Assembly (NCBI GenBank): GCA_947631035.1
Contig: CANRJW010000001.1
Span: forward strand, 5,254-69,253
Length of the DNA: 64,000 nt
DNA from: an uncultured Bacilli bacterium
GTDB taxonomy: Bacteria > Bacillota_I > Bacilli_A > RF39 > UBA660
Reading direction: 5' to 3'
How positions within the stretch are numbered: the first letter of the stretch is position 1; the number at the start of each line of letters is the position of its first letter. The translations under genes were made by a program, and so were the position numbers. Positions 437-44,300 of this stretch are shown one piece after another. Under the pieces are notes generated by a model, which was not told the origin of the DNA, made no database searches, and saw nothing but the letters and a program-made list of their open reading frames with translations.

Positions 437-2797
437 TTATTTCCATTCCCAATTGGTAACTTCAGGCATATCAATACCATACTCTTTAATATAAGTCTCG
501 TGTTTTTCAAGCATTTCAACACAATATTTTTGACATTTTTCTTTTTCTTTTGGATAAGAAGAAATATGGTCCAAAAGAAGTAAAACTAAGTGAAAACGGT
601 CCACTTTATTTAAAACACGCATATCAAAAGGAGTGGTAATACTTCCTTCTTCGTTGTAACCTCGAACATGCAAATTGGTATTGGTTCTTCGATAGGTTAA
701 TTCATGGATTAAATTTGGATAGCCATGAAAAGCAAAGATAATAGGTTTATCCTTTGTAAATATCAAATCATAGTCTTTATCGGATAATCCATGGGGATGT
801 AAACTTTCGGATTGTATTTTCATTAAATCGACGACATTAACAAAACGGGTTTTTAATTTTGGAATGTATTCTCTTAAAATACTAGTGGCAGCAAGTCCTT
901 CAAGGGTTGGCATATCTCCACAAGTGGCAATTACGGCATCGGGTTCACTATTTTTATCGTTGCTGGCAAATCCCCAAATGCCAATCCCTTGGGTACAATG
1001 TTTATCTGCTTCTTCCATCGAAAGCCATTGTGGTTTTGGATGTTTGCTGGCAATTAAAACATTGACATAATCCTTGGTATCAATAATATGATTAAAACAA
1101 GAGATTAAAGTATTCGTATCGGGTGGTAGATAAGCCCTTACAATACTTGCTTTTTTGGTCATGATATGATTTAAAAATCCTGGGTCTTGATGTGTATATC
1201 CATTATGGTCTTGTTGCCATACATGACTAGTAAGAAGGAGATTTAAAGAAGGAATTGGTTTGCGCCATGAAACTTCTTTGGCCATTTTAAGCCATTTAGC
1301 GTGTTGGCTTACCATAGAATCGACCACTCGAACAAAGGCTTCATAACTATGGAAAAAACCAAATCTTCCGGTTAATAAATACCCCTCTAACCATCCTTCG
1401 CAGGCATGCTCAGATAAATAGGAATCCATAACGACTCCATCATTGGCCAAATATTCATCTTGGTTTATGATGGTAGCATTCCATTTACGGTCCGTAACTT
1501 CAAATACATGATTCAAACGATTTGATAAAGCTTCATCTGGACTAAACATACGAAAATTACGATTTTCTTTATTGAGTTCAATTAAATCTTTAATATAAAC
1601 GCCCAGTTCACTCATGTCTTGTGCTATCACACGACCCGGTTTTGAAACTTGAACACCATATTTTTTAAAATCTGGCTTCTTTAAAGGAATTGTTAGTAAT
1701 CCACCATTGGCATTTGGGTTTGCACCCATTCGTTCAAAACTAACCGGTGCTAAATCTTTATAATATTTTTTTAAACGACCATCCTTATTAAAGAGTTCTT
1801 CGGGATGATAACTTTTTAACCATTCTTCTAGACGTTCTAAACTTTCTGGATGTTCTTTCGTCACTTCAATAGGAATTTGATGAGCCCGAAAACTTCCTTC
1901 AATTTTTTTGCCATCAATTTCTTTCGGACCTGTCCAACCTTTTGGAGTACGTAAAACAATCATTGGCCAAATGGCTCTTTCTGAGTTATTCGTCTTGCGA
2001 GCATGATTTTGAATTGCTTTTATTTTTTCAATTACAGTATCCATAACGGTTGCCATATCTTCATGTATTTTTAAAGAATCCTGTCCACTCACATAGAAAG
2101 GTTCCCAACCACAACCTCTTAAAAAGGCATCTAACTCAATATCACTAATACGAGATAAAACAGTAGGGTTTGAAATTTTATACCCGTTTAAGTGAAGAAT
2201 TGGTAAAACAGCACCATCTGTTATGGGATTTAAGAATTTATTCGAATGCCAACTAGTAGCAAGAGCACCTGTTTCGGCTTCCCCATCTCCTATTACACAA
2301 GCTGCAATTAAACTAGGATTATCAAAAACTGCCCCAAAAGCATGCAATAAACTATAGCCAAGTTCTCCTCCTTCATTGATAGAACCAGGAGTTTCCGGTG
2401 TTGCATGACTTCCAATCCCTTTTGGGAAACTAAATTGTTTACAGAGTTTTTTTAAACCTGCGATATCTTCGGTGATTTCCGGATAAAATTCACTATAACT
2501 TCCTTCTAAGTAAGTATTTGATACAACGGCTTGTCCACCATGACCTGGACCACAAACATAAATCATATTTAAGTTGTATTTTTTGATAACTCGGTTTAAA
2601 TGAACATAAACGAAATTTTGACCAGGAACAGTACCCCAGTGTCCAACAAGTTTTGCTTTTATATCATCAAAAGTTAACTTTCTTTGTAAAAGAGGATTAT
2701 CTTTTAAATAAAGTTGGGCAGCACTTAAATAATTAGCAGCTCTAAAATAACCATCTATTTTCTTTAACATTTCTTTAGATAAAGTTTTATCACGCAT
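437..2797 (-). CDS. xfp: xylulose-5-phosphate/fructose-6-phosphate phosphoketolase
   Basis: 786 aa; N-terminal GHWGTVPGQNFVYVHLNRVIKKYNLNMIYVCGPGHGG is the phosphoketolase TPP-binding signature; full-length. Confidence 0.9.
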   Translation of the reverse strand: MRDKTLSKEMLKKIDGYFRAANYLSAAQLYLKDNPLLQRKLTFDDIKAKLVGHWGTVPGQNFVYVHLNRVIKKYNLNMIYVCGPGHGGQAVVSNTYLEGSYSEFYPEITEDIAGLKKLCKQFSFPKGIGSHATPETPGSINEGGELGYSLLHAFGAVFDNPSLIAACVIGDGEAETGALATSWHSNKFLNPITDGAVLPILHLNGYKISNPTVLSRISDIELDAFLRGCGWEPFYVSGQDSLKIHEDMATVMDTVIEKIKAIQNHARKTNNSERAIWPMIVLRTPKGWTGPKEIDGKKIEGSFRAHQIPIEVTKEHPESLERLEEWLKSYHPEELFNKDGRLKKYYKDLAPVSFERMGANPNANGGLLTIPLKKPDFKKYGVQVSKPGRVIAQDMSELGVYIKDLIELNKENRNFRMFSPDEALSNRLNHVFEVTDRKWNATIINQDEYLANDGVVMDSYLSEHACEGWLEGYLLTGRFGFFHSYEAFVRVVDSMVSQHAKWLKMAKEVSWRKPIPSLNLLLTSHVWQQDHNGYTHQDPGFLNHIMTKKASIVRAYLPPDTNTLISCFNHIIDTKDYVNVLIASKHPKPQWLSMEEADKHCTQGIGIWGFASNDKNSEPDAVIATCGDMPTLEGLAATSILREYIPKLKTRFVNVVDLMKIQSESLHPHGLSDKDYDLIFTKDKPIIFAFHGYPNLIHELTYRRTNTNLHVRGYNEEGSITTPFDMRVLNKVDRFHLVLLLLDHISSYPKEKEKCQKYCVEMLEKHETYIKEYGIDMPEVTNWEWK

Positions 2798-2838
2798 ATT
2801 ATCAAACCCTATTCTATTTATAAGTATAACCGAAATTT

Positions 2839-2873
2839 TGAAAAAATAGAAGTCTAAAACGCTAAGACTTCTA
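2839..2873 (-). terminator. rho-independent terminator after the M23 peptidase gene; hairpin overlaps the stop codon
   Basis: tagaagtct-N9-agacttcta stem followed by a T-run on the minus strand. Confidence 0.5.
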
Positions 2874-3719
2874 CTCCTTTACTTTGATTTGGACAGCATC
2901 AATTTCCTTACCTAATATTCCAGCATAGCCAGAATTTGTATCGTCATATTTTTGTACCCATGATAACCAACTACCATTTTTTAAATGAACTCGATAAAGT
3001 AAAGTACAAGTATCGCTTTTCATTTGAATTCCATCAATGTTTTTACCAAGGTTTCCGGCATAGTCTTCCCTATCCTTTACATCAGGTAGCCATTTATTAT
3101 TCATTTCATGTACACGATACACGACATTTCCTTTTGTCAAGTTAATGGCAAGGCCACTCATGGCATTTCCTAAATTTCCAGCATAATCCAAATCATTAGT
3201 CACATTAGGTAACCATCTTTTTTTACGGCTATCATAAGACTGATAAATCACATCTATTTTTTCTATATCGTTAGGAAGATTGGCATCAATATAGGGAGTT
3301 GGGTTAATACGAACATCTTTATTATTTCGGACTTCAAAATGTAAGTGAACACCATAAGCTTTACCTGTTTCTCCCATTTCTCCTAAAATATCTCCCTGTT
3401 TTACTTGATCACCTTTTTTGACGTTAACATTTTTTAAATGGGCATATAAAGTATACATTCCATTATGATGTTTTAATTTTACATAATTTCCATAAGTTGC
3501 AGTACCCGTAGTATTTGTATCATGCTTTTGGCCTGTTGCTACTGAGACAACTTCACCATCACTATGAGCCATCACTTCCGCGATTTTATTTTTTTCTTTA
3601 ACAAGGTCAATTCCCTTATGAGTAATGGCATTGTACTTTTGGGTAACTTGATTTATAGCATTGTATAAGACTCTACTCAAATATATTCCTCCTCCTATGG
3701 ATAGAATATGTTGGAACAT
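2871..3719 (-). CDS. M23-family peptidoglycan endopeptidase with three C-terminal ~45-aa cell-wall-binding-type repeats
   Basis: GVHLHFEV (HxH) and YAHL motifs of peptidase M23; C-terminal repeats KWLPDVKDREDYAGNLG / RWLPNVTNDLDYAGNLG / SWLSWVQKYDDTNSGYAGILG. Confidence 0.8.
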   Translation of the reverse strand: MFQHILSIGGGIYLSRVLYNAINQVTQKYNAITHKGIDLVKEKNKIAEVMAHSDGEVVSVATGQKHDTNTTGTATYGNYVKLKHHNGMYTLYAHLKNVNVKKGDQVKQGDILGEMGETGKAYGVHLHFEVRNNKDVRINPTPYIDANLPNDIEKIDVIYQSYDSRKKRWLPNVTNDLDYAGNLGNAMSGLAINLTKGNVVYRVHEMNNKWLPDVKDREDYAGNLGKNIDGIQMKSDTCTLLYRVHLKNGSWLSWVQKYDDTNSGYAGILGKEIDAVQIKVKE

Positions 3720-3765
3720 ATTTTTGGTATTTGCATATGCACAGAAAAAGGTTGATTTTATAGTA

Positions 3766-5799
3766 TTAAATGGCTAGGACGATACGGAAACTACAATTTC
3801 CCCTCGCAATCCCATCTTCACCGAAAAAAGCAAATAAACCTCTTCGAATAGTATTTTGAAACTGTCCACCACGACAAAGCCACGGATGCGTAGTGTAAAC
3901 AAATACTGCATAATCTTGATAAAAATAACTCCAATGCCATCCTCCGCCAACATTAGTTCCTATAGGTCCTATTTCTCCTATTGCATCTCCTAAAATTCGA
4001 CGATTCCAATGGGTTTGGTCAGCCCAATATTGGTAACTATCATAATATTTAGAATCTGCAAAATCTATTTTTCCTCCTGAGCCATAATCAACTTCTTTAT
4101 TCCCCTCTTGTAACATCACTCCCGCTACATATTCCCATGAACCACCGGACATGTCGAAGATGCCTGTATTATTTTCTGTGGTACTTGCTTTTTGACTTGT
4201 TGGGTATACGTAGGAAACATTATTACTTTCCTTTGGAGTTGTAGTTGCATATTCGTCCTTAGAAAAACCTGTATCAGCTCCATTTATTGCTACTACACCG
4301 GTTACATAATTTTGACTATTATTAACATTTACTTCGGTACATTTACCATTATTACATCTTCCATAAATAGAATTTGTAAGATAAGCAACGGCTCCCCACT
4401 CTGTATTCTTCATCATATGACTTTCTAATTCTCTTTTATACCCATAACTTGTTTGATAGGCATTCGATACGTTTATATTTCTCCATGAATAAACATTTGG
4501 TTTTATGATAACTTGTTCTGATTTATTTTCATTTTTTTGGGCATCTTCCACTTTTGTAGCTCCTTTATATCCTGTTTCAAACTTGCCGACCCACAATCCT
4601 TTAGCTCCTTCAAAGGCTAGAAATGCTGGATGCGTCATCCAATCTCCATAGCCACAACTTCCTCTTTCTCCTGATTCTGTTGGGGTAGTACATTCATTTG
4701 GATTTCCATCATCAGTATCTTCTATTCCAAATCGTATCTCAATTGATGTCGTTGGACCTTTATTGGAAAGTTCACTGCTGGCTGGTAATGCTTCAGTATA
4801 TTCCCCTAACTTATCGTCAAATAACTTATAACTATATTTTGGTATCCATACAAAATAACTTTCGATATCTTTCTCTTCTATTGTTGCCCCTACGTCTGGT
4901 TCTTCTGCTCCATCTGTTAGTATAACAGCATTCGCCCATCTCTTCTCTTCATAGTTATACCAATCATGGGATAAATCTGCTCTAGTAACTGTTCCATTAT
5001 CACTTATAATGACAGGTATGAGTTTATCGTTTGGAGTTGGTTCTACTTCTGCTAGTGTATTGGTTGATAGTAAAGCAATTTCTCCTTTACTATCTTGATT
5101 TCCTAATACTGGGTCTGCTCCATGTAATTTTGGTTCATTATAAACTGCTAAATCATTCATACTTCCATCTACTACTATTTTACTAATAAAAATTTTATTC
5201 ATTGCTTGGTCTTCTATTGTAACACTTTCGTCCATCCATAGTTTTATTGTATATGTTTTTGTATCACTCTCATTTAATGTTCCTTTTATTAATTCTCTTG
5301 CTTCTACTGATTTATAATCTTCTCCTTCATAGGTACTTTTTCCTTTTGGATAATTGAATAGTAACTCTTTTTGGCCTCCATTAAACTCTACGGCTATATA
5401 TTCACTATTTAATAAATTATCTTCTTGGCCGTTTTTTTCCATTAACTTCTCTAGTTTTACTGTATAATCCACTGTTGTTTTACATATATTTGTGATTTTA
5501 AATTGATAAGGTGTCAAATTCTTGGCATCTTTATCTTCTATAGGATAAGTCTTTTCTAAACGGATATCATTTTTTTCTTCTGTTAAACTTAATTTTAAGC
5601 AACCACTTTGTACTTCATTAATTCCAGTTTGAGTTGCCGTTGTTGTCCACCAGGCATAACTTGTTCCTACTAAAATTAATAATCCTGCTATAATTCCTAT
5701 AAATATTATTTTGATTCGTCGTTTGGGTTCCTTTCTATTATTATCTAATATACCCCCCCCCCAGACGACTATTTTCACTGGTTGGGAGGTTCTTTTCAA
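3766..5799 (-). CDS. Phase-variable surface-protein candidate: SipW-type leader plus TasA/camelysin-like N-domain, with a C-terminal FGE-sulfatase (SUMF1/DUF323)-like domain. Coordinates follow the TTG-initiated track ORF; the Shine-Dalgarno-linked ATG at 5809 is out of frame across the G10 tract
   Basis: GTSYAWWTTTA resembles the TasA GGTWAAFND SipW-cognate motif; LKLSL..PIEDKD..YQFKITNI pattern as in TasA; C-terminus NTEWGAVAYL / SGGSWEYVAG / LCRGGQFQNTIRRG resembles FGE-sulfatase motifs; paralogous to 11848..13596. Confidence 0.6.
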   Translation of the reverse strand: MKRTSQPVKIVVWGGGILDNNRKEPKRRIKIIFIGIIAGLLILVGTSYAWWTTTATQTGINEVQSGCLKLSLTEEKNDIRLEKTYPIEDKDAKNLTPYQFKITNICKTTVDYTVKLEKLMEKNGQEDNLLNSEYIAVEFNGGQKELLFNYPKGKSTYEGEDYKSVEARELIKGTLNESDTKTYTIKLWMDESVTIEDQAMNKIFISKIVVDGSMNDLAVYNEPKLHGADPVLGNQDSKGEIALLSTNTLAEVEPTPNDKLIPVIISDNGTVTRADLSHDWYNYEEKRWANAVILTDGAEEPDVGATIEEKDIESYFVWIPKYSYKLFDDKLGEYTEALPASSELSNKGPTTSIEIRFGIEDTDDGNPNECTTPTESGERGSCGYGDWMTHPAFLAFEGAKGLWVGKFETGYKGATKVEDAQKNENKSEQVIIKPNVYSWRNINVSNAYQTSYGYKRELESHMMKNTEWGAVAYLTNSIYGRCNNGKCTEVNVNNSQNYVTGVVAINGADTGFSKDEYATTTPKESNNVSYVYPTSQKASTTENNTGIFDMSGGSWEYVAGVMLQEGNKEVDYGSGGKIDFADSKYYDSYQYWADQTHWNRRILGDAIGEIGPIGTNVGGGWHWSYFYQDYAVFVYTTHPWLCRGGQFQNTIRRGLFAFFGEDGIARGNCSFRIVLAI
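5753..5762. repeat. Homopolymeric C10 (G10 on the coding strand) tract inside codons 13-16 (WGGG) of the TasA-like gene; candidate slipped-strand phase-variation switch
   Basis: Read directly; the only long G/C run in an ~30% GC window apart from its twin at 13550-13559. Confidence 0.9.
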
Positions 5800-29894: not shown

Positions 29895-30620
29895 TTAAAC
29901 ATATGAATCAAGTAATTTTTTTAAATCATTTTTCATTTCAGTAATTGTTGAATATCTTATTCCTTCTTTTGAAGATGTTGCCTTTAAAATAATAAAATTG
30001 GCAAACCAAGGCGCATTAGAACTCTTAAAAGAATATTCCTTTTTTAATTGTAATAATTTATTTGTATCAACATCTCCAAAATTTAATTCAGAATATAACT
30101 CATATAACATAACTCCTAAAGCATATATATCAAAATAAACAGAAACTTTATTCAATTTCAACTGCTCTAAAGAACAATATTTTTTAGTACCATATGAAAC
30201 ATACTCACCAATTTTTCGAGTATTAGCATAATCTATTAAATACAATTTTCCATCATTGCGAATCATAATGTTACTAGGATTTAAATCACAATGTACAAAA
30301 CCATCTTTATGCAAAAATTCTAAAATTTTTGCAACCGAATATAGAATTTCAATATTTTTTTTTAAAGAAATACTATTTTTAATTTTATTATAAGATAACC
30401 CATTTATATATTGATAAACAATATATTTTTTATCAATATCATATTTATATATTTTAGGTAAAAAAGAATATTTTTTTATAATAGAATATACTTTAATTTC
30501 ATTTTTCAATTGTGAAATATCCTTTTCTTTTTTTAAAACCTTTATAAAATAATCGTGATTCGTTTCATTTATATGATAAAAAATACCATTTTGATTTTCT
30601 AATTTTTTTAAAATTTCCAC
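29895..30620 (-). CDS. Minimal protein-kinase-like protein (Ser/Thr-kinase fold without a canonical glycine loop); GTG start
   Basis: HCDLNPSNIM (HRDLKPxN catalytic loop), DYA (DFG-like), GTKKYCSLEQ (APE-like), DIYALGVMLYEL (DxWSxG). Confidence 0.55.
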   Translation of the reverse strand: MEILKKLENQNGIFYHINETNHDYFIKVLKKEKDISQLKNEIKVYSIIKKYSFLPKIYKYDIDKKYIVYQYINGLSYNKIKNSISLKKNIEILYSVAKILEFLHKDGFVHCDLNPSNIMIRNDGKLYLIDYANTRKIGEYVSYGTKKYCSLEQLKLNKVSVYFDIYALGVMLYELYSELNFGDVDTNKLLQLKKEYSFKSSNAPWFANFIILKATSSKEGIRYSTITEMKNDLKKLLDSYV

Positions 30621-30894: not shown

Positions 30895-33800
30895 TTATCC
30901 TCCTATAACACCAATGCTCTGAATATAATTTTCATAATCCACATGATTATCAAACATTTTTTTGCCATTTTTTTGGTCATATACTATATAATCCGTACCA
31001 TTATCTTTAGATACTGTAATAATACAAAGTGGTATTGTTTTATCATCAGCTTTGATATATTCCGTTGCAGTGCTCACCTTTATATTATCTTGTTTATTAA
31101 ATAAAATATATTTCAAATTGCTAAAATAAACTCGAGCTTCAAATCCATCCATATATTCTGGAATTGGGGTATTTTCAAAATCTTTAATTAAATCAACAGT
31201 ATCAGTATTCTCCGTACTAGGTTTAAATACATTGTTGGCCTTTTCTAAAAGTTTATCAAAATATTCATTTTCTTTAACGCCAATTTTTTTATCCACATTT
31301 GCCCATGTTGTTCCATATTGTGCTAATACAGAATTATCCAAATTTACTAATCTTTTATGTGATAATTTATTCATATATCCATATACAAAACCAGCTGTAG
31401 CAAAACCACATTTGCAATTAACTAAATCATTTGATTTATTGATAGCATCGGTTGCATCAGCAACAATAACGCGATTTTCATCTACTTTAACTTCAACCCA
31501 TTTATGGGAACCCACACTATCACCACCAATAATGGATACATTTTTTTCTTCTATTCCACTAGCAATTAATAACTCGGCATATAACTGACTCCATCCTTTA
31601 CAAATGACATTATTGCTCTCTAAATTTTGAAAGTTAAGATTTTTATTATAAATAGTTGCCTTAATACCTAAATTTTCTTCATTATCATCCATAAAAGTTG
31701 TATCATAATGTACCCGTTTATTCAATTCATAATAAATTTTACGGGATTTTTCTAATATGGACCATTTTGAATCAATTAGTGACAATATTTCGTATTTTAT
31801 GTAATTTAAATTTTCTGTTGTAGTTGAATTGGTTGGATTTGAAATATCCCATTTTTCTGATAATTCTGCGCCTTCTATTTTATGTGCAACCTTATCATAC
31901 CAATCTCTAGCAACAATTTTTGATATTTTTTTCTCTTTTATAAAGTTGGCTAAATAAGAATTATCCCTGAAGTTTTCATAAGTATCATACTCGTATTTAG
32001 AAACTTTTTTATATTTTAGTTTACCTTCCTGTTGAACTAAAACAAAATATTCTTTTGAAGTAAATGCATTTTTTAAATTCCAATCCCCCTCATATATAAT
32101 AGCACTATCGTCTAGATTTCGAACCTTTAATTTTGAACTAGTAATAGTTTCTAAACCAGGATTTACTTTAAGAGCTGTAATTTTCACAGGTAAATCATTT
32201 AAATTTGTAGCCACTGCTCCTACTTCTGGAATACCAGCAAAAAATATTTTTTTACCAAAATTCATTACAGAATTACTATTTTTCAATAATTGACTCGACA
32301 TAATTTTATCAATATCTTTTTCACTAGAAAAATAATATAATCCTTCTTTTAAAATTTTATCATTCAAACCTTTAAAATAATTCGTGTCAGTATATATAAA
32401 TCTATGCATAGTCGAAATTAATTTATTGGACATTGCATTTAATACATTATGGCTTTGATAATTTGTTAATAACACATTCAAGTCAGGTAATTTCTTTTCA
32501 TTATTTAATGGTACTGTTACTTCTTCAGTAATATTTTCATCCGTATTTAAATTTTCTTCATTTGAAATAGTTATTGAATCTACTCGGATATCACTTTTAT
32601 CTTCTTTTAATTCTTCAGCATTATTTTCTTCTAATATGTCTGTAGCTTCATCAGCCTCTAGCACTTCTATTACATTATCATCCAATTTTTTGCTACTGCT
32701 AATAGAATTTTCTGCTATTTTGACATCAGGTCCTAAAGATTCAAAAGTTTTCTTTAACATATCACTGAACTCATCACCGAATATTTCTTTAAGAGTGGTT
32801 AAATATTTCTTATCTGTTAAAATTAAACTCGTATAAGTTGCAAACATCTCATGAAAAGAAATTAAATCACTTCCAATAGGATGATTTTCATAATATTCAG
32901 CACTATGACCATATCGAAGACGATATTTTTCATTTTGATTAAATGAAATCTCCGGATTTTTATAAACACTACAAATAATACTAGATAAATCTATTAAATC
33001 AGGGTATTTTTTAGACATATTCTCATAGGTTAGTTTTGTTATCTTATCGGATACCTCATAAGTAGCAACTTGCTCGCGTAATTCGGCACCACTTATATCT
33101 TTCAAATGTTCTTTTAAAGAAGGATGACGTTCAAATAAATTTTCTTTAATTTGCGTAAAATTTGTTTTATTGTAATTTTGTAATTCTTTAGTAACTACTT
33201 CATCTAATGTTGATACATTATATTGTTTCATGACACTTTTTTGGGCATCATTTAAACATTCATTGCGAGATTTTTCAATTTGTTCTTGTAATGAAATAAT
33301 TTTTTCTGAATTGACATTTTTTATAGCGCGTCCGATTATATTTTGATAATCGTCAGGTAATTTTTCATTTAATACTTTTTCAAAGAAGGCATGTCCCATT
33401 TCATGAAATAAAGCCCTAGAATTTTTCTTATCCGCATTAAGATAAACATTTCCGTTGTTTTCATAACTTCCTTCATTTGTTTCATAAAAATGAATTTGAT
33501 CTTTCATATTTAAAAGTAATTCTCTTATTGCTGTTGCTTCTGTATTGCCTTTTTTGGCAGAATCTAAAAGATAATCACTTACAAGTTTGACAAGTTTTGG
33601 ATCACTTTTTCCATCCTGAGTAAGCGTTTTTATAAAATGGCTTTCTTTCGATTCAAATATTGACTTTATCTTATTTTTGATTTTATCATCAATTTTTAAA
33701 TCCAGTATTGTATTCCCTTTTGAATTTGTTCTAATATTATATTTACTAGTATCCACTTTAGATAATTTTAAAATATTTTCTATAACAGAATAATCTATTT

Positions 33801-36800
33801 TTTTATCCGTTGTTTCAAACGTCATTTCATACATTTTAACGTTTCTTTGTCTTTGTTCTATTCCAAGAGCAAATCGTGCTACTGCCAAATTCGTTTCCTT
33901 TGTGGAAGGTGTTTTTGTTAAATTTTTAATAAAGCCTAATTTTTGCATTTGTCTTAATAACATAAAAGTATTTGCTTGACTTGTTGTTCCATATTTATGA
34001 TTTTTTTCTAATTGTTGGAAAGCATTTAAAGAACGAACCAAAAAATATTCTTGGGGATTATCTGAAAATCTAGATTTTATAAAATCATTATAAGAAAATA
34101 CATTTTGATTTAATTTTATAATTTGTTCCGTTTTACCATCAGCAGTCTGCATTTTAGAATCAGCAGTCATTAAAATACTATCTTTTATATTATTATTATA
34201 AAAACCATCATTCATTAAACTGATACTTTTTAAGGCAAGTGGTACACTTAAAACAGCCCCAATTGGACCAGAAGAAACTAAACTCGTGAAAGCAACAAGA
34301 CCTGCAGTTCCCCCTATCAGTTTTGCTCCTCGAACTGTAGCATTTTTAACTTGCTTAATTTTTAAAGGTTTAGAATCGTTTACTAACTCTAAAGTATTTT
34401 TATTTTCAAATAATGAATTTAAATAACTATCTTTTATCGATTGAACATTTTTTTTGTTATTAACATATTCTTCTATTTTCTTTCCTTCTTCGGTATTTTT
34501 ATAATGATCATATACATCTTTAGAAACTGATTCGTAGACTAACTCATCTTGTTTTTGTTTTAATACAAAATATTCTTTTGAAGCTTCCTGATTTGTCAAG
34601 TCAAATTTTCCATCATAACTAATGGCATGATCATCTAGATTTCGTATTTTTAACTTTGAACTTTCAATAATATCCGTTGTAGGCATAACTTTAACAGCCG
34701 TTGCTGTTAATGGCAAGTAATCCAAATTGGTTGCAAAAGCACCTACCTCTGGAACTCCTGAAAAGAAGAAAGTTTTTGGATTTCCATAAGAGGCATTAAT
34801 ACCGCTTGGCTTAATATAACCACTTTGCAGAATTTGATCTGCTGCACTTGTAAAATGATACAATCCATTCTTTTCTATTCCTTCATTTACACCAACAAAA
34901 TTATTTGTATTTTTGTATACATATTTTTTTAAATTTGACTCTAAAGTAAGTCGTATGGATTGTGGTAATGAAAAATTATTATATTTTAATCCATTTATTT
35001 TATCTTGAGTTTGAACTTTAGGCGTTTCCAATTTTTGTTTGTTCATTTGGGTATTTACTTCACTTATGACTAAATTTGGTGAATTTAAAATTCCACCTGT
35101 AATAGCTCCATAAATAGCACTCTTTTTGGCATTTTCAGTTACTTCTTGTAAATCAATATCTTCCTTAAAAATTCCATATCGTGTTAAGGCATCTACATAT
35201 TCTTGGGTTCCTTCTTCCACCCCTTCTTTTAACATGGATTGAGCAAACGTTTTTAATCCTGTTACATTAACATCACTTAATCCTGGTATTGCTCCTAAAA
35301 ATCTTTCCATTGTAGTTTCTGATACCCCTGATACCACTCCATATAAAACAGAATTTTTTAAATCCTTGCCTTCTACCATAGCACTATGGTAACTGCTACC
35401 TCCAGCACTAATTCCCATACTCACACTACCTACTGCTGGAGTACAAAGAATTCCTAAGGCCATACTTGGTATCATATTACCAATACTTTGTGATATTTCA
35501 TAATTATTATCAAGTATTTTATTGTACTTTTCCGTATTTTGTAAAGCTTCTAGGATATACATAGATTCATATTCATCTTCACTATAAATGCGCGAATCAC
35601 TTGCTAAATTATTTTCAATTCCTAAAAGGGAAGATGCATATGCCCCTACTCCTTTTATAGCATTTGCAAATCCGCCAAAAAAAGATTCTGTTCCATCTCC
35701 TAAACCTTTTCCTGCTACTTTTGCATGGTTTTCTAAAAAACTTGATAATTTCTTGGTAATTTCTTCGTTTGCTTTTTCATCTTCTAAACCATTTAAAAAT
35801 TTTTGGGCTTTTAAATATCCATTCATTTGATTGACATTATTTTTAGTAGCCAATAAATATTCTTCTGCTGCTTCTTCTCCTCTTTTTTCCCATAAATAAT
35901 TATACATTTTTGCTAATTCTGGATTGCTTTTGGAAGCTTTTAATAAACTTTCTAATTCTCCTTTATGTTCGATTGTAATTTGATCACGATTCGCATATTG
36001 GTTTAACGTTCTAAATTGTTCTAATGGACTTATCTCTTTCTTACCGATATCTTTAATACTGGCTTCTTTATAGTTATAATTTTGGTAATCTTCTGTCAAT
36101 GGTAATAATTCATACAAGGAACAACTTTTTAACTCTTTTGTTTTTTCAATAGAAGCTTCTAGTGTTGCTTTATCACTTTTTAGTTCATTTAAACGCTTGC
36201 TAAATTCTTGATAATTGGCAAAATTGGTTGATGCTTTTACAGCATTTGTTAAATCGGATTCACTTTTATTAACCGTTGCATACATCTTTTTGACATCACT
36301 ATCTTTTGCTTGACACAATTTTAATAATTCGGTTGTACTTAATGTTGCTAATTCCTTTTTGGTTATTCCCAGTTCTTTTAATTTAGAATCGGTACAGCCA
36401 AAATTTTTATAATCACTTATAAGTTTATTAATGTCTGCTTCTACCAATCTTTTTTGATTTTGGGCAAGTTCATTTGCTCGAGCAAATTGTTTTTCAAACG
36501 GAAGTAATTTGTTTAATTCTTCATTTACTGTGTCTAAAAGCCCATCATATTCCTCTATTTCTTTTTGATACATTTCTTCATATTCATGAAGTAAACTTTG
36601 AAAGGCATCACTTTCTACATTTTCCATATTGTCATATTGGGTATTATAAGCACCTAAATTCATTTTAAAATTTGCAAAAACAGCATTTAAGTTGTCCATG
36701 CCAAAAGAAGTTTTTTGAATTGAATTCAAATTGGGAATTATTAACGAAGAATGCTCTATAGGAAAAATTTTTTCGTCATATAATTTTAGTTTTGATAAAG

Positions 36801-37116
36801 AATTACGATATTTTCCAACAATACCCCTTGTGCTTGAATCAAATAATCCTTTTTGTCCACTATTACTTAAATTTTCTTCTATAGCCTCTAAATCAAAAGC
36901 ATATTCTCTTAAATACTCTGCAACATTTCCAATATTCTTAGCAATAGTTATATAATTTTTATTTATTTTTCCTAAATAAGTAGATACAGGTGTCCCGCTG
37001 GAACTATACGAATTGGGTATAAAATTTTTTTGTTTATTTTGATAGTAAGTTTGATAGTTTTTCATTGTATTAATATTGGTTGTAATAGCACTAGTGCTGG
37101 CAAATAACTTATCCAT
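30895..37116 (-). CDS. Giant (~2074 aa from ATG 37116) multi-domain polymorphic-toxin candidate in the T7SSb locus: helical LXG-like N-terminal region, glycine-rich PT-TG-like segments, duplicated ~150-aa domain, HExxH zincin motif, C-terminal transglutaminase-like Cys-His-Asp domain
   Basis: Track ORF starts at TTG 37155, but ATG 37116 has an AAGGA RBS. Gly-rich segments FFGGFANAIKGVGAYASS..MGISAGGSSYHSAMVEG and LIGGTAGLVAFTSLVSSGPIGAVLSVP. Internal repeats GLYHFTSAADQIL..FFFSGVPEVGAFATNL..SSKLKIRNLDD vs GLYYFSSEKDIDKI..IFFAGIPEVGAVATNL..SSKLKVRNLDD. HEMGH encoded at 33391-33405. C-terminus CKGWSQLYAELLIASGI ... GSHKWVEVKV ... VIVADATD resembles a transglutaminase/papain-like triad. Confidence 0.6.
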   Translation of the reverse strand: MDKLFASTSAITTNINTMKNYQTYYQNKQKNFIPNSYSSSGTPVSTYLGKINKNYITIAKNIGNVAEYLREYAFDLEAIEENLSNSGQKGLFDSSTRGIVGKYRNSLSKLKLYDEKIFPIEHSSLIIPNLNSIQKTSFGMDNLNAVFANFKMNLGAYNTQYDNMENVESDAFQSLLHEYEEMYQKEIEEYDGLLDTVNEELNKLLPFEKQFARANELAQNQKRLVEADINKLISDYKNFGCTDSKLKELGITKKELATLSTTELLKLCQAKDSDVKKMYATVNKSESDLTNAVKASTNFANYQEFSKRLNELKSDKATLEASIEKTKELKSCSLYELLPLTEDYQNYNYKEASIKDIGKKEISPLEQFRTLNQYANRDQITIEHKGELESLLKASKSNPELAKMYNYLWEKRGEEAAEEYLLATKNNVNQMNGYLKAQKFLNGLEDEKANEEITKKLSSFLENHAKVAGKGLGDGTESFFGGFANAIKGVGAYASSLLGIENNLASDSRIYSEDEYESMYILEALQNTEKYNKILDNNYEISQSIGNMIPSMALGILCTPAVGSVSMGISAGGSSYHSAMVEGKDLKNSVLYGVVSGVSETTMERFLGAIPGLSDVNVTGLKTFAQSMLKEGVEEGTQEYVDALTRYGIFKEDIDLQEVTENAKKSAIYGAITGGILNSPNLVISEVNTQMNKQKLETPKVQTQDKINGLKYNNFSLPQSIRLTLESNLKKYVYKNTNNFVGVNEGIEKNGLYHFTSAADQILQSGYIKPSGINASYGNPKTFFFSGVPEVGAFATNLDYLPLTATAVKVMPTTDIIESSKLKIRNLDDHAISYDGKFDLTNQEASKEYFVLKQKQDELVYESVSKDVYDHYKNTEEGKKIEEYVNNKKNVQSIKDSYLNSLFENKNTLELVNDSKPLKIKQVKNATVRGAKLIGGTAGLVAFTSLVSSGPIGAVLSVPLALKSISLMNDGFYNNNIKDSILMTADSKMQTADGKTEQIIKLNQNVFSYNDFIKSRFSDNPQEYFLVRSLNAFQQLEKNHKYGTTSQANTFMLLRQMQKLGFIKNLTKTPSTKETNLAVARFALGIEQRQRNVKMYEMTFETTDKKIDYSVIENILKLSKVDTSKYNIRTNSKGNTILDLKIDDKIKNKIKSIFESKESHFIKTLTQDGKSDPKLVKLVSDYLLDSAKKGNTEATAIRELLLNMKDQIHFYETNEGSYENNGNVYLNADKKNSRALFHEMGHAFFEKVLNEKLPDDYQNIIGRAIKNVNSEKIISLQEQIEKSRNECLNDAQKSVMKQYNVSTLDEVVTKELQNYNKTNFTQIKENLFERHPSLKEHLKDISGAELREQVATYEVSDKITKLTYENMSKKYPDLIDLSSIICSVYKNPEISFNQNEKYRLRYGHSAEYYENHPIGSDLISFHEMFATYTSLILTDKKYLTTLKEIFGDEFSDMLKKTFESLGPDVKIAENSISSSKKLDDNVIEVLEADEATDILEENNAEELKEDKSDIRVDSITISNEENLNTDENITEEVTVPLNNEKKLPDLNVLLTNYQSHNVLNAMSNKLISTMHRFIYTDTNYFKGLNDKILKEGLYYFSSEKDIDKIMSSQLLKNSNSVMNFGKKIFFAGIPEVGAVATNLNDLPVKITALKVNPGLETITSSKLKVRNLDDSAIIYEGDWNLKNAFTSKEYFVLVQQEGKLKYKKVSKYEYDTYENFRDNSYLANFIKEKKISKIVARDWYDKVAHKIEGAELSEKWDISNPTNSTTTENLNYIKYEILSLIDSKWSILEKSRKIYYELNKRVHYDTTFMDDNEENLGIKATIYNKNLNFQNLESNNVICKGWSQLYAELLIASGIEEKNVSIIGGDSVGSHKWVEVKVDENRVIVADATDAINKSNDLVNCKCGFATAGFVYGYMNKLSHKRLVNLDNSVLAQYGTTWANVDKKIGVKENEYFDKLLEKANNVFKPSTENTDTVDLIKDFENTPIPEYMDGFEARVYFSNLKYILFNKQDNIKVSTATEYIKADDKTIPLCIITVSKDNGTDYIVYDQKNGKKMFDNHVDYENYIQSIGVIGG

Positions 37117-37226
37117 ATTAATACATCCTTTCTTCTTAGAGGCATAGAAAAACAACCCTACTTTATTATTACTTAAATCTTATCATATTTTCAGGTTGTC
37201 TTCAATCATTTTAAATTCTTTATCTA

Positions 37227-37234
37227 TTTTGTTT
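37227..37234. repeat. 8-bp target-site duplication TTTTGTTT, left copy, of the IS66-family insertion
   Basis: Identical octamer abuts both ends of the element (second copy at 39026-39033). Confidence 0.8.
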
Positions 37235-39025
37235 GTTACAATTCACAGCTGAAATAAAAAGAAACTAGAAAAAAGAAAGAAATTCTAGTTTTTTAAATGT
37301 TAAAAGAATAGTTAATAAGTAGGTAAAATTTGTTCATAACTATAAGCATTATTTCTAGGTTAAACGGGCAATAAATGGTATAATTATCTTATAAAGTTGG
37401 TGGCAATAATGGCAGTAGAAACAAGTTTAAGTAAATTACAAAAGCAAGTAGATAAATTAGAAAAAGATAATTTAAAATTAAGAGATTTATTGGCAGAAAG
37501 AAAAGCAAAACAAGAACAAGCAGAAAAATCATTAAAATATTATAAAGAGAATATAGAAAAAATAGTAACAGATGCAGTGGAAAAAGCAACCACAGAACTA
37601 ATGAAAGAATTAAATAAAATAAAAGAAGAAAATGAACATTTAAAAAGGATATTAAACCATGATAGTAGTAATACAGGAATACCAACAAGTAAAACGAAAA
37701 TAGGAGAAGAAAAAAGAATACCGAATTCAAGAGAAAAAAGTAATAAATCAAAAGGTGGACAAACAGGACATAAAAAAACGAAGTTAGAAAAATTTAAAGA
37801 TAATGAAATAACAGATACCTATACATATGAAATAGCAAAACCAATCTGTAATGAATGTGGAGGTAAATTAAACTTAATAGGAAAAAGAAGCAAAGATGAT
37901 TTTGATATAGAAATAAGATTAGTAAAAAGAAGAAATGAATTTTGTATATATGAATGTAGTTGTTGTCATAAAGAAATAAAAGTACCAATACCAGATAAAT
38001 TAAAGGAAGAAAATCAATATGGAAGTAATGCTCAAGCACTAGCCATATCACTAGTAAATGAAGGATATGTATCCTTTAAAAGAACCAGAGAGTTAATAAG
38101 TGGCTTTACAGGTGGAGAAATGAATATGAGCGAAGGATACATAGTCAAATTACAAAAGAGATGTTATGAAAAATTAAAAGAATTTGACAATAGTCTTCAC
38201 CAAGAGATATTAAAACAATCCTTATTAAACTGGGATGATACAACAATAAGTATCAACGGAAAGCAATCATGCTTAAGATTTTATGGAAATGAAAATCTAA
38301 GATATTACAAAGCTCATGCAAAGAAAGATAAAGATGGAATAGATGAAGATGGAATACTTAAATATCTAAGTAAAGATACTATGGTAGTACATGATCACAA
38401 TAAAGTAAATTATAATGAAGATTATGACTTTACGAATGCAGAATGTTGTGTACATTTAATACGTGATTTAAGAGAACTAAATGATTGTCTTTCTAGAGAA
38501 TGGATAGAAAATCTCATAAAGTTATTAGTAGATACAAATGACAAAAGAAAAGAATATATAGATAAAAGTATTCTTCAATTTGATAGTGAAGTATCAGATA
38601 AAGTAATAGAAGATTATGACAAAATCATAGAACAAGCCAAAAAAATCAATTTAAAAGATTTCAATCAATATTATGGAAAAGAAGAAAGAACAATGATAAA
38701 GAGGCTTGAAGATTATAAAGAGAATTATCTATTATGGGTACTAAGATTTGATATACCATTTTCAAATAATCTAAGTGAACGAGCATTAAGAGGGAGCAAG
38801 ACAAAAATGAAAGTATCAGGACAGTTTGCAAATATACAAAATGCTGAATACTTCGCAAGAATAAAATCTTATATGGAAACTTGCAAATGTCATAATATTA
38901 ATCCTCACACTGCCTTAGTTCGACTTATAGAAGATAATCCTTATACTTTAGAAGAATTAAAAATAAACTAAGTTTTTGCTTAGTCTATTTTATGTTATTT
39001 TCTTTTCGGGGCTGTGAATAGTAAC
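37235..39025 (+). mobile_element. Intact single-ORF IS66-family insertion sequence (1791 bp) with imperfect terminal inverted repeats and a perfect 8-bp TSD
   Basis: IRL GTTACAATTCACAGCTGAAATAAAAAGAAA vs reverse complement of the right end GTTACTATTCACAGCCCCGAAAAGAAAATAA; flanked by TTTTGTTT on both sides; encodes an IS66-type transposase. Confidence 0.8.
37397..38971 (+). CDS. IS66-family transposase
   Basis: 524 aa; N-terminal leucine zipper/coiled coil; GGQTGHKKTK (IS66 GQPGHKG-like); C-x2-C...C-x2-C zinc-ribbon; WDDTTISINGK DDE region; C-terminal NNLSERALRGSKTKMKVSGQF..ETCKCHNINP matches the IS66 NNxAERALR tail. Confidence 0.85.
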   Translation: MVAIMAVETSLSKLQKQVDKLEKDNLKLRDLLAERKAKQEQAEKSLKYYKENIEKIVTDAVEKATTELMKELNKIKEENEHLKRILNHDSSNTGIPTSKTKIGEEKRIPNSREKSNKSKGGQTGHKKTKLEKFKDNEITDTYTYEIAKPICNECGGKLNLIGKRSKDDFDIEIRLVKRRNEFCIYECSCCHKEIKVPIPDKLKEENQYGSNAQALAISLVNEGYVSFKRTRELISGFTGGEMNMSEGYIVKLQKRCYEKLKEFDNSLHQEILKQSLLNWDDTTISINGKQSCLRFYGNENLRYYKAHAKKDKDGIDEDGILKYLSKDTMVVHDHNKVNYNEDYDFTNAECCVHLIRDLRELNDCLSREWIENLIKLLVDTNDKRKEYIDKSILQFDSEVSDKVIEDYDKIIEQAKKINLKDFNQYYGKEERTMIKRLEDYKENYLLWVLRFDIPFSNNLSERALRGSKTKMKVSGQFANIQNAEYFARIKSYMETCKCHNINPHTALVRLIEDNPYTLEELKIN

Positions 39026-39261
39026 TTTTGTTTTGCTTCTAAACAAGAGCCTTCACAATTTTCATTGTAGCACTTTGTTTCAAAAATTTTTATTTTCTTT
39101 TCTAGTGCTTCTTCAAGAATTTGGCAACGCACTTCATAACTCATAGAAGTCCAATCAAAAGGATATAAATCAGAATCATATTCTCCGACTTTTTCTTCTT
39201 TGTCAAACATTTTTGCATAAGCGGTTTGCATAAAATAGCATAACATTTTATTCTCATTCAT
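38995..39261 (-). CDS. Small Cys-rich protein (88 aa) whose last 9 codons are supplied by the IS66 right end; the ancestral ORF ended ...EAKQNR*
   Basis: Codon-by-codon reading across the IS junction at 39025/39026; seven Cys residues; no family assigned. Confidence 0.4.
   Translation of the reverse strand: MNENKMLCYFMQTAYAKMFDKEEKVGEYDSDLYPFDWTSMSYEVRCQILEEALEKKIKIFETKCYNENCEGSCLEAKQKLLFTAPKRK
39026..39033. repeat. 8-bp target-site duplication TTTTGTTT, right copy
   Basis: See 37227-37234. Confidence 0.8.
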
Positions 39262-44039: not shown

Positions 44040-44300
44040 AAGAAAAAACACAGCATTTCTTAAGGACGAAAATGCCGTGGTACCACCTTAATTCCTAGTA
44101 AAACTAGCTTTCTTCATCTTCTATAGGAGATGACCCATTAAACTCCAAAAGCAAGTTCGTAAATTTTATTTGTTTACTTACACCCACCGTAAACTCTCTT
44201 TAAAATAAAGGTTTTACTACTACTCTTTTTTCAACGCTTTTAAGTATTATATTAAATTTTTCTTTTTTTTTCAATAGATTTCTTTTCATAACGAAAAAAA
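44040..44300 (-). promoter_or_regulatory. T-box riboswitch leader (tRNA-Leu expected) with terminator/antiterminator, upstream of the small membrane ORF-leuS unit
   Basis: Minus-strand AATTAAGGTGGTACCACGGCATTTTCGTCCTTAAGAAATGCTGTGTTTTTTCTTTTTT contains the T-box consensus (AANNNGGGTGGNACCGCGG-like), then GCATTT..AAATGC terminator helix and a U-run. Confidence 0.6.

Follow-up and report, generated by a model that had tools for sequence, protein, structure and literature searches.

The segment 37235..39025 (forward strand; 1,791 bp) of the 64-kb stretch of DNA analyzed here (hereinafter, the window) is, with high confidence, a complete IS66-family insertion sequence of the single-ORF type (ISBst12 type) that has transposed into a T-rich octamer, TTTTGTTT, duplicating it, and now resides inside a type VII secretion (T7SSb) operon. 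The two copies of the octamer directly abut the element (left copy, 37227..37234; right copy, 39026..39033), and the bases outside them are unlike, namely A/C on one side and G/T on the other, so the target-site duplication measures 8 bp exactly. On both strands together, the window contains 32 occurrences of the octamer; for two given 8-mers of such a composition, the probability of agreement by chance is estimated at about 5e-5, and hence the identity of the flanking octamers is not fortuitous. Immediately inside the duplication lie the terminal inverted repeats, IRL (GTTACAATTCACAGC; 37235..37249, forward strand) and IRR (reverse complement GTTACTATTCACAGC; 39011..39025, reverse strand), which agree in 14 of 15 bases, with the similarity ending past base 15, and start with GT(A/T/G)A(C) as in the IS66 family. 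The G+C content of the element is 26.5% vs 30.6% for the window. On re-reading the sequence, the initial annotation of this region was upheld with respect to the IS66-type insertion itself, the terminal inverted repeats, the perfect 8-bp duplication of identical flanking octamers and the intact single transposase ORF.

The transposase and family membership

The only credible ORF inside 37235-39025 is the transposase gene (forward strand, from the ATG at 37409 to 38971), which encodes a protein of 520 aa, the length called in the databases (524 aa when counted from the TTG at 37397). The gene is preceded by a Shine-Dalgarno sequence, GGTGG, at 37399-37403 and by an extended -10 element, TGgTATAAT (37376..37384, forward strand), the likely transposase promoter, which was delineated by alignment of related copies and in which TG and TATAAT are invariant across 4 copies. 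The protein matches the Pfam profile DDE_Tnp_IS66 (PF03050; residues 208-484) at 58.8 bits (cut-off, 23.1) and the NCBIfam equivalog model NF033517 (transpos_IS66; model positions 1-385 of 387) with 186.6 bits against a cut-off of 180. Across 22 sequences with 53-92% identity, D276 (WDDT), D329 (HDHN), E457 (NNLSER) and C346-C347-x-H349 are invariant, and resemblance to known motifs identifies D276/D329/E457 as the predicted catalytic triad. The four putative zinc-finger cysteines, C147, C150, C183 and C186, are invariant in the same set; the zf-IS66 profile (PF13005) scores 17.1 bits on this protein, under its cut-off of 27.3, and precomputed PF13005 matches are present on some of the homologues. 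All annotated relatives in Clostridium, Bacillus, Deinococcus and Geobacillus are named "IS66 family transposase", and identity to annotated plasmid-borne IS66-family transposases is only 26-29%.

Canonical IS66 elements (of Agrobacterium and Rhizobium, IS679 type) are about 2.5-2.7 kb long and contain three genes, tnpA, tnpB and tnpC (Gourbeyre et al. 2010, cited in PMC12898284). The element described here resembles them in the homologous DDE transposase (TnpC) with an N-terminal coiled coil and a putative Cys4 finger, in the CwAH-like motif and in the 8-bp duplication, but possesses the tnpC-like ORF alone; because tnpA and tnpB are absent, it is assigned to the single-ORF ISBst12 group rather than to the canonical three-ORF IS66. 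ISBst12 from Geobacillus stearothermophilus is reportedly about 1.6 kb long, with 16-bp inverted repeats and an 8-bp direct repeat. Like the members of this group, the present element combines a single transposase ORF containing the IS66-type DDE domain, and no tnpA/tnpB, with imperfect repeats of ~14-16 bp starting from GTNAC and an 8-bp duplication, whereas its transposase barely clears the NCBIfam cut-off given above. ISDge4 from Deinococcus geothermalis, another member of the ISBst12 group, likewise has a single ORF, inverted repeats GTGACTACTCAGCA/GTAACTGCTCAGCA and an 8-bp direct repeat (PMC12898284); its transposase (449 aa) is shorter than the 520-aa protein found here. All features by which the ISBst12 group has been defined, that is, a single ORF, a length of ~1.6-1.8 kb, IS66-type ends and an 8-bp duplication (PMC12898284), are found in the element, which is an ordinary insertion of an already known kind.

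The host operon

The transposase gene is antisense to the T7SS operon, in which the element separates a large gene (30895..37116, reverse strand), encoding a putative T7SS substrate or effector of 2,073 aa, from the WXG100-like genes upstream; this split, inferred initially, holds. The spacing of 80 bp from the element to the large gene does not, having rested on the longest-ORF start, the TTG at 37155. The likely start is the ATG at 37116, which is preceded by a Shine-Dalgarno sequence (AAAGGA) at a distance of 9 nt and is the codon chosen in public gene calls, and the intervening DNA is 118 bp long. The locus carries EssC (FtsK_SpoIIIE), a YukD-like protein and a WXG100 protein that scores above threshold (TIGR03930, 48.6 bits vs 44.85). 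Another ORF of 88 aa begins 2 bp past the stop codon of the large gene.

A search with the whole large protein retrieved no match to the LXG domain (PF04740), nor did one with its residues 1-285 at E-values up to 10, and NCBIfam and PDB searches of the protein found nothing; a weak YwqH-like match was detected (E = 0.0025). The description of this gene as a toxin is thus backed by its T7SS context but not by any LXG, toxin or PDB match. The sole detectable relative of the large protein (P0123) shares residues 172-902 with 54% identity and differs at the C-terminus; it is encoded in a differently arranged T7SS locus (L111) that offers no comparison for the insertion site. The locus in the window accordingly displays the features of a T7SSb effector locus, namely a conserved N-terminal part of the large protein, a variable C-terminus and a small downstream gene. 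Among the characterized systems, the closest comparison is with the T7SSb LXG loci that encode the targeting factors Lap1/Lap2, such as TelC/LapC1/LapC2 of Streptococcus intermedius (Klein et al., bioRxiv 10.1101/2022.07.06.499029). As in those loci, small WXG100-like helical proteins are encoded just upstream of a large protein that is conserved N-terminally and variable C-terminally, and genes for EssC and YukD are present; unlike in those loci, none of the LXG, DUF3130 and DUF3958 models matches here. The labels Lap and LXG would therefore apply to this locus by analogy, not by membership.

The rewritten small gene

The gene disrupted at its 3' end by the insertion (38995..39261, reverse strand) at present encodes a protein of 88 aa, which we analyzed by homologue search and in-silico excision of the element. 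Residues 1-78 are native, codon 79 straddles the junction, and residues 80-88 along with the stop codon are encoded within the element (38995-39025), so that the current reading is ...EAKQKLLFTAPKRK*. Excision restores an 80-aa protein, with the reading ...GAA GCA AAA CAA AAT AGA TAA (...EAKQNR*), in which the terminal AAT AGA TAA runs into the ancestral stop codon at 37220-37222; the orphaned former 3' end of the gene thus persists as 37220..37226 (reverse strand) on the far side of the element. The replacement of NR* with KLLFTAPKRK*, proposed in the initial annotation, is thereby reproduced.

The search with the small protein retrieved 27 remote homologues, the bulk of them 74-87 aa long, in which conservation stops at an EGV motif upstream of the junction. 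Judging from these alignments, the C-terminal change is probably harmless, given that only the tail is altered and that the tail varies in both length and sequence across the family. The depiction of the protein as Cys-rich does not reflect a family trait: no cysteine is invariant, and the first one alone is shared, by about half of the members. An AlphaFold2 model of the 88-aa protein alone is of low confidence (pLDDT 58.8). We also considered whether this small ORF might be spurious and rejected that notion in view of the 27 remote homologues of like length.

Predicted effect on transcription of the large gene

The transcriptional consequences of the insertion can be outlined as follows. Transcription coming from the WXG100-like genes would have to traverse an untranslated antisense stretch of 1.8 kb and, at the exit from the element, would meet a terminator-like A/U hairpin followed by a U tract (37259..37294, forward strand), which is located between IRL and the transposase promoter and was identified by folding and alignment. 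Related copies retain this hairpin with a different sequence, and the operon strand can fold likewise (-8.7 kcal/mol), there too with a U-rich run behind the hairpin. Fewer transcripts would then probably read through into the large gene, a polar effect, and most expression of that gene would probably come from a promoter-like motif (TTGAAG, 17 nt, TGaTAAGAT; 37177..37205, reverse strand), which lies in the 118 bp of native DNA separating the gene from the element and which the insertion leaves unaffected. The motif was recognized by reading the sequence and falls below the scan threshold; a site that the scan does report, CTGAAA-18-AATAAT (37194..37165), overlaps it. Promoter-like sites are no more frequent in this A+T-rich DNA than in shuffled sequence (21 found vs 29.7 expected) and the terminator scan yielded no G+C-rich terminator, so all that is said here of transcription is what we infer from sequence motifs.

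The large gene might instead have depended wholly on the upstream operon promoter and might now be silent, that is, a pseudogene in expression, perhaps under selection for disarming a costly effector. Such an outcome would fit the spacing of 2-103 bp between the genes of the operon, as expected of a single ancestral transcript, the presence of a 1.8-kb antisense element with a terminator-like hairpin at its exit and the fixation of the insertion in the lineage (see below); the 6.2-kb ORF is nevertheless intact in every assembly, which argues against a long-term loss of function, and the extended -10 motif between the element and the ATG could supply a promoter. We consider complete silencing rather unlikely. 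Still less probable, to the point that we mention it with considerable reservation, is that the insertion is a selected regulatory change, whereby a large lineage-specific T7SS effector became insulated from the WXG100/secretion operon and is either transcribed from its own promoter only or silent. On this reading, the apparent preference of the clade for T-rich octamers in a single orientation would steer such insertions to the ends of genes and to intergenic DNA; if true, this would be an instance in which an IS has rewired the weaponry that uncultured gut Bacilli with reduced genomes use against other bacteria.

That the insertion activates the large gene, by means of either a promoter pointing outward from the IRL end or a hybrid one made up jointly with the target DNA, appears very improbable. 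Outward and hybrid promoters occur in many insertion sequences, and IRL read outward ends in TTGTAA, a -35-like hexamer, but no well-spaced -10 element follows it (the best one, TAAAAT, is 22 nt away), and any transcript started within the element would have to get past the hairpin with its U-rich run (37259-37294). Moreover, over the ~950 bp at the large-gene end of the element, the promoter scan detected no operon-strand site of at least 9/12, the first one listed further inside being at 38190..38161, so that the outward promoter at the IS end suggested in the initial annotation finds no counterpart in this part. Reduced read-through and expression from the native motif are the preferred reading. 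The significance of the insertion beyond annotation is small: it documents one IS copy that has become fixed within an operon for a type VII secretion effector. If expression of the effector is altered, the locus would serve as a modest example of how an IS can regulate antagonism between bacteria.

Age of the insertion and the search for an empty site

The junctions of the element are identical in all five contigs of other assemblies that extend to the site. Three of them, from ENA, contain the element from end to end and the other two cover its right junction; the flanks of these contigs differ from the window by 0-7 SNPs (99.96-100% identity). No contig extending to the site was without the element, and one short contig (L010) ends before the site. 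The insertion is thus fixed in the strain lineage, which appears to tolerate it. Its description as recent is accordingly only partly sustained: the perfect duplication and the intact transposase agree with it, but the presence of the element in all five contigs shows that it is already fixed. That the assembler misplaced a repeat here, with no true insertion, is exceedingly improbable, since, even with a family that is multi-copy in metagenomes and includes some contigs that look chimeric and are free of a duplication, misassembly would not yield a perfect 8-bp duplication plus a cleanly restored ORF, nor identical junctions in five contigs from separate assemblies with flanks matching at 99.96-100%.

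Comparison with IS-free alleles, as proposed originally, did not materialize with any of the approaches employed. A search of 5.8 billion proteins with the reconstructed 80-aa protein retrieved only the 88-aa inserted form; look-ups of the exact 164-aa neighbour, the 88-aa protein and the 2,073-aa protein always led to the same locus; a 20-mer across the empty junction produced 17 matches in JGI metagenomes, all of them chance matches of 20-30 nt; and in 80 GTDB genomes whose LeuRS is related (79% identity or less), the T7SS locus and the element are both missing beside leuS. The empty site is therefore a reconstruction.

A clade of related elements

A second copy was also looked for: the 64-kb window holds one copy only, no identical second copy of the element is present in the databases, where the exact transposase protein is found at this locus only, and no DNA match to the element was detected in the phage collection. 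The transposase has 1,205 homologues at E<1e-10, the majority of them on contigs of ~1.7-2.0 kb, the size of the element itself, as expected of a multi-copy repeat. In at least eight related copies, the first and last bases coincide exactly with those of the window element; two contigs begin at base 1 of IRL, and the IRL terminus was also found in L005-L007 and L112-L120. Independent copies are flanked by 8-bp duplications of their own (CTGATTTT in L007, ATTTTTTT in L112/L113 and GATTTTTT in L115), and all four duplications seen, including that in the window, are T-rich. Four related copies lack a duplication, perhaps because they are chimeric assemblies or arose by recombination. The varied contexts and the element-sized contigs point to mobility of the clade as a whole.

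What is new here is an unnamed, abundant clade of single-ORF IS66-family elements of gut Bacilli, with the ends GTTACWATTCACAGY and T-rich 8-bp duplications; the clade is large and known from uncultured gut Bacilli only. The host of the window is itself an uncultured gut bacterium with a low G+C content, a member of the class Bacilli.

An ISBst12-type insertion sequence in a type VIIb secretion locus

The segment 37235-39025 is a true insertion with clear-cut boundaries, formed by an unnamed IS66-family element of the ISBst12 type. It spans 1,791 bp enclosed by two copies of TTTTGTTT (37227-37234 and 39026-39033), and the bases immediately beyond both copies differ, so that the duplication is exactly 8 bp. 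The terminal inverted repeats, IRL (37235-37249, GTTACAATTCACAGC) and IRR (39011-39025, reverse complement GTTACTATTCACAGC), are identical at 14 of 15 positions, with no similarity further inward; the identical octamers and the imperfect, terminal repeats described in the initial annotation are thus borne out. Further copies, which that annotation proposed to search for, are missing from the 64-kb window, where no other good match to the terminal pattern and no second element or transposase was detected.

A single long ORF occupies the plus strand of the element, from 37397 (TTG) or 37409 (ATG) to 38971. A GGTGG Shine-Dalgarno sequence lies 5 nt before the ATG, and public gene calls list the 520-aa product that results from this start; the transposase is an intact single ORF as originally described, with the 524 aa of that description corresponding to the TTG start. 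The G+C skew flips across the element, in keeping with a gene oriented opposite to those around it. The assignment to IS66 holds, given that the protein exceeds the curated thresholds of both Pfam DDE_Tnp_IS66 (58.8 versus 23.1 bits) and NCBIfam transpos_IS66 (186.6 versus 180, with almost the entire model covered). In an alignment with 22 homologs (53-92% identity), D276, D329, E457 and a CCxH motif are invariant and appear to be the counterparts of the IS66 DDE triad and CwAH motif; C147, C150, C183 and C186 are invariant as well, and the score with the zinc-finger model is below threshold. The closest annotated relatives in a plasmid collection, from Clostridium, Bacillus, Deinococcus and Geobacillus, share only 26-29% identity and are all annotated as IS66 family transposases. 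Whereas canonical IS66 elements contain three ORFs, the ORF reading of 37235-39025 revealed neither tnpA nor tnpB, which places the element in the single-ORF ISBst12 group. Its architecture is that of ISDge4, an ISBst12-group element of Deinococcus geothermalis in which one ORF lies between imperfect inverted repeats (GTGACTACTCAGCA/GTAACTGCTCAGCA), with a direct repeat of 8 bp (PMC12898284).

Downstream of IRL and ahead of the transposase promoter, positions 37259-37294 can fold into a terminator-like A/U hairpin with a U tract (-10 kcal/mol, z = -2.1). This hairpin is retained in related copies with differing sequences (database contigs L005-L007; z down to -6.3) and probably insulates the transposase against outside transcription. 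It is followed by an extended -10 element, TGgTATAAT (37376-37384), the TG and TATAAT of which are invariant in four copies, and then by the Shine-Dalgarno sequence and the transposase gene.

Related copies and age of the insertion

Relatives of the element point to a mobile clade. A search of 5.8 billion proteins yielded 1,205 transposase homologs (E<1e-10), the majority on element-sized contigs of 1.7-2.0 kb, the typical outcome when repeats present in many copies are assembled from metagenomes; two such contigs start at IRL base 1. Flanked copies have identical start and end bases, GTTAC[A/T]ATTCACAG[C/T]. Three independent insertions carry perfect 8-bp duplications of their own, namely those on L007 (CTGATTTT), L112/L113 (ATTTTTTT) and L115 (GATTTTTT). 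Together with the duplication in the window, all four are T-rich on the transposase strand, which hints at a target and orientation preference of the clade (n = 4). Four other copies show no duplication, an observation that we would attribute to chimeric assembly or inter-copy recombination. The relative on L112 (1303-3108) and L113 (1229-3034), which is 73% identical, lies 73 bp upstream of rpoB in the rpoB orientation, indicating that insertions of this clade beside an essential gene are tolerated. Contig L005 contains two different IS66-family elements in tandem (125-2126 and 2192-4029), 65 bp apart and with no target duplication seen at either; the first is less closely related, and an extra 84-aa ORF precedes its 531-aa transposase.

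The same insertion is present in all five contigs of other assemblies that extend to this site (ERZ27249596, ERZ27249588, ERZ27249106, ERZ27249325 and Logan ERR10663748), with 0-7 SNPs relative to the window over up to 16 kb of flank. Thus, the insertion is young enough for its duplication to be perfect and its gene intact, and yet it is fixed in the lineage, so that "recent" applies only in the former sense. The comparison with insertion-free alleles proposed originally found no counterpart: protein searches, exact-protein look-ups, an empty-junction search and related genomes yielded no such allele.

Genomic context and transcriptional consequences

The element interrupts a type VIIb secretion locus. 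In minus-strand order, the neighborhood consists of leuS; a 214-aa WXG100 protein (TIGR03930, 48.6 versus 44.85 bits); two weak WXG100-like proteins (97 and 95 aa); a 164-aa coiled-coil protein; the small gene (38995-39261); the insertion; the large gene (30895-37116), encoding a 2,073-aa protein; an 88-aa ORF starting 2 bp past the large-gene stop codon; a 241-aa protein-kinase-domain protein (29895-30620; Pfam Pkinase, 79.1 bits); two small proteins, one of them YukD-like; and EssC. The kinase-domain protein occupies the place expected for EssB, a pseudokinase-fold protein; no EsaA or EssA homolog was recognized among the genes scanned. A T-box leader (44059-44243, minus strand; RF00230, 103.8 bits versus a gathering score of 93) precedes a 122-aa ORF and leuS, in an ordinary tRNA-sensing arrangement for control of a leucyl-tRNA synthetase operon. 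LeuRS is at most 79% identical to that of any species representative, and its best matches come from gut MAGs labeled uncultured Bacilli, Tenericutes or Clostridium sp. CAG:594, which places the host in the class Bacilli, as an uncultured gut bacterium of low G+C content.

The large gene had been called a toxin gene, which is a reasonable reading of its type VIIb context, although profile and PDB searches gave no LXG, toxin or PDB match. Its only detectable relative, P0123 (locus L111), shares residues 172-902 at 54% identity and differs at the C-terminus. Within the protein, a domain of about 167 aa occurs twice (approximately residues 725-890 and 1566-1730; 46% identity); an HEMGH motif of the HExxH type and a weak match to a transglutaminase core (1788-1887) are also present. 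Translation likely starts at ATG 37116, the start codon given in databases, with an AAAGGA Shine-Dalgarno sequence 9 nt ahead of it, and less likely at TTG 37155; accordingly, the element ends 118 bp upstream of the gene, not 80 bp.

The transposase is antisense to the T7SS operon. Transcription continuing from the WXG100 genes would have to pass through 1.8 kb without translation before reaching a hairpin (-8.7 kcal/mol on the operon strand) and a U-rich run behind it, so that the insertion is likely polar on the large gene to some degree. A scan for consensus terminators found none. The 118 bp of retained native sequence contain a plausible large-gene promoter, TTGAAG-17 nt-TGaTAAGAT (37205-37177), read from the sequence alone. 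Taken together, the antisense element, the hairpin, the promoter scan and this native motif favor a reading in which the large gene would be less coupled to the operon and expressed from its own promoter. Silencing of the large gene, to which the likely polarity could also point, is the weaker alternative given the retained motif. Activation by an outward promoter at the IS end, as suggested initially, is unlikely: within the ~950 bp at the large-gene end of the element, the scan listed no promoter-like site on the operon strand. Overall, the scan counted fewer such sites than shuffled controls did (21 versus 29.7). The insertion sits in an interesting neighborhood, and any effect on its neighbors is putative.

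On the other side, in-silico excision restores an 80-aa small-gene product ending in ...EAKQNR*, compared with 88 aa ending in ...EAKQKLLFTAPKRK* at present, in agreement with the proposed rewriting of its C-terminus. A word-index protein search retrieved only the 88-aa form; scanning 1.84 billion representatives in full with HMMER added 27 remote homologs (30-46% identity, mostly 74-87 aa). In their alignment, conserved positions extend as far as an EGV motif, represented by EGS (residues 70-72) in the window protein; the tails past it range from 0 to ~25 residues. With its position at codon 79, the insertion thus affects just this variable tail, probably without harm. The label "Cys-rich" does not extend to the family, in which no cysteine is invariant.

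This unnamed family (P0124-P0150; ~75-80 aa), which has no Pfam match, is characterized by invariant Y15, P34 and Y65, nearly invariant W37 and LxEA, and EGV near the C-terminus. The homolog on contig L121 adjoins a 205-aa protein resembling, with motifs judged by eye, the gene downstream of P0123. The family may be linked to effector or immunity islands.
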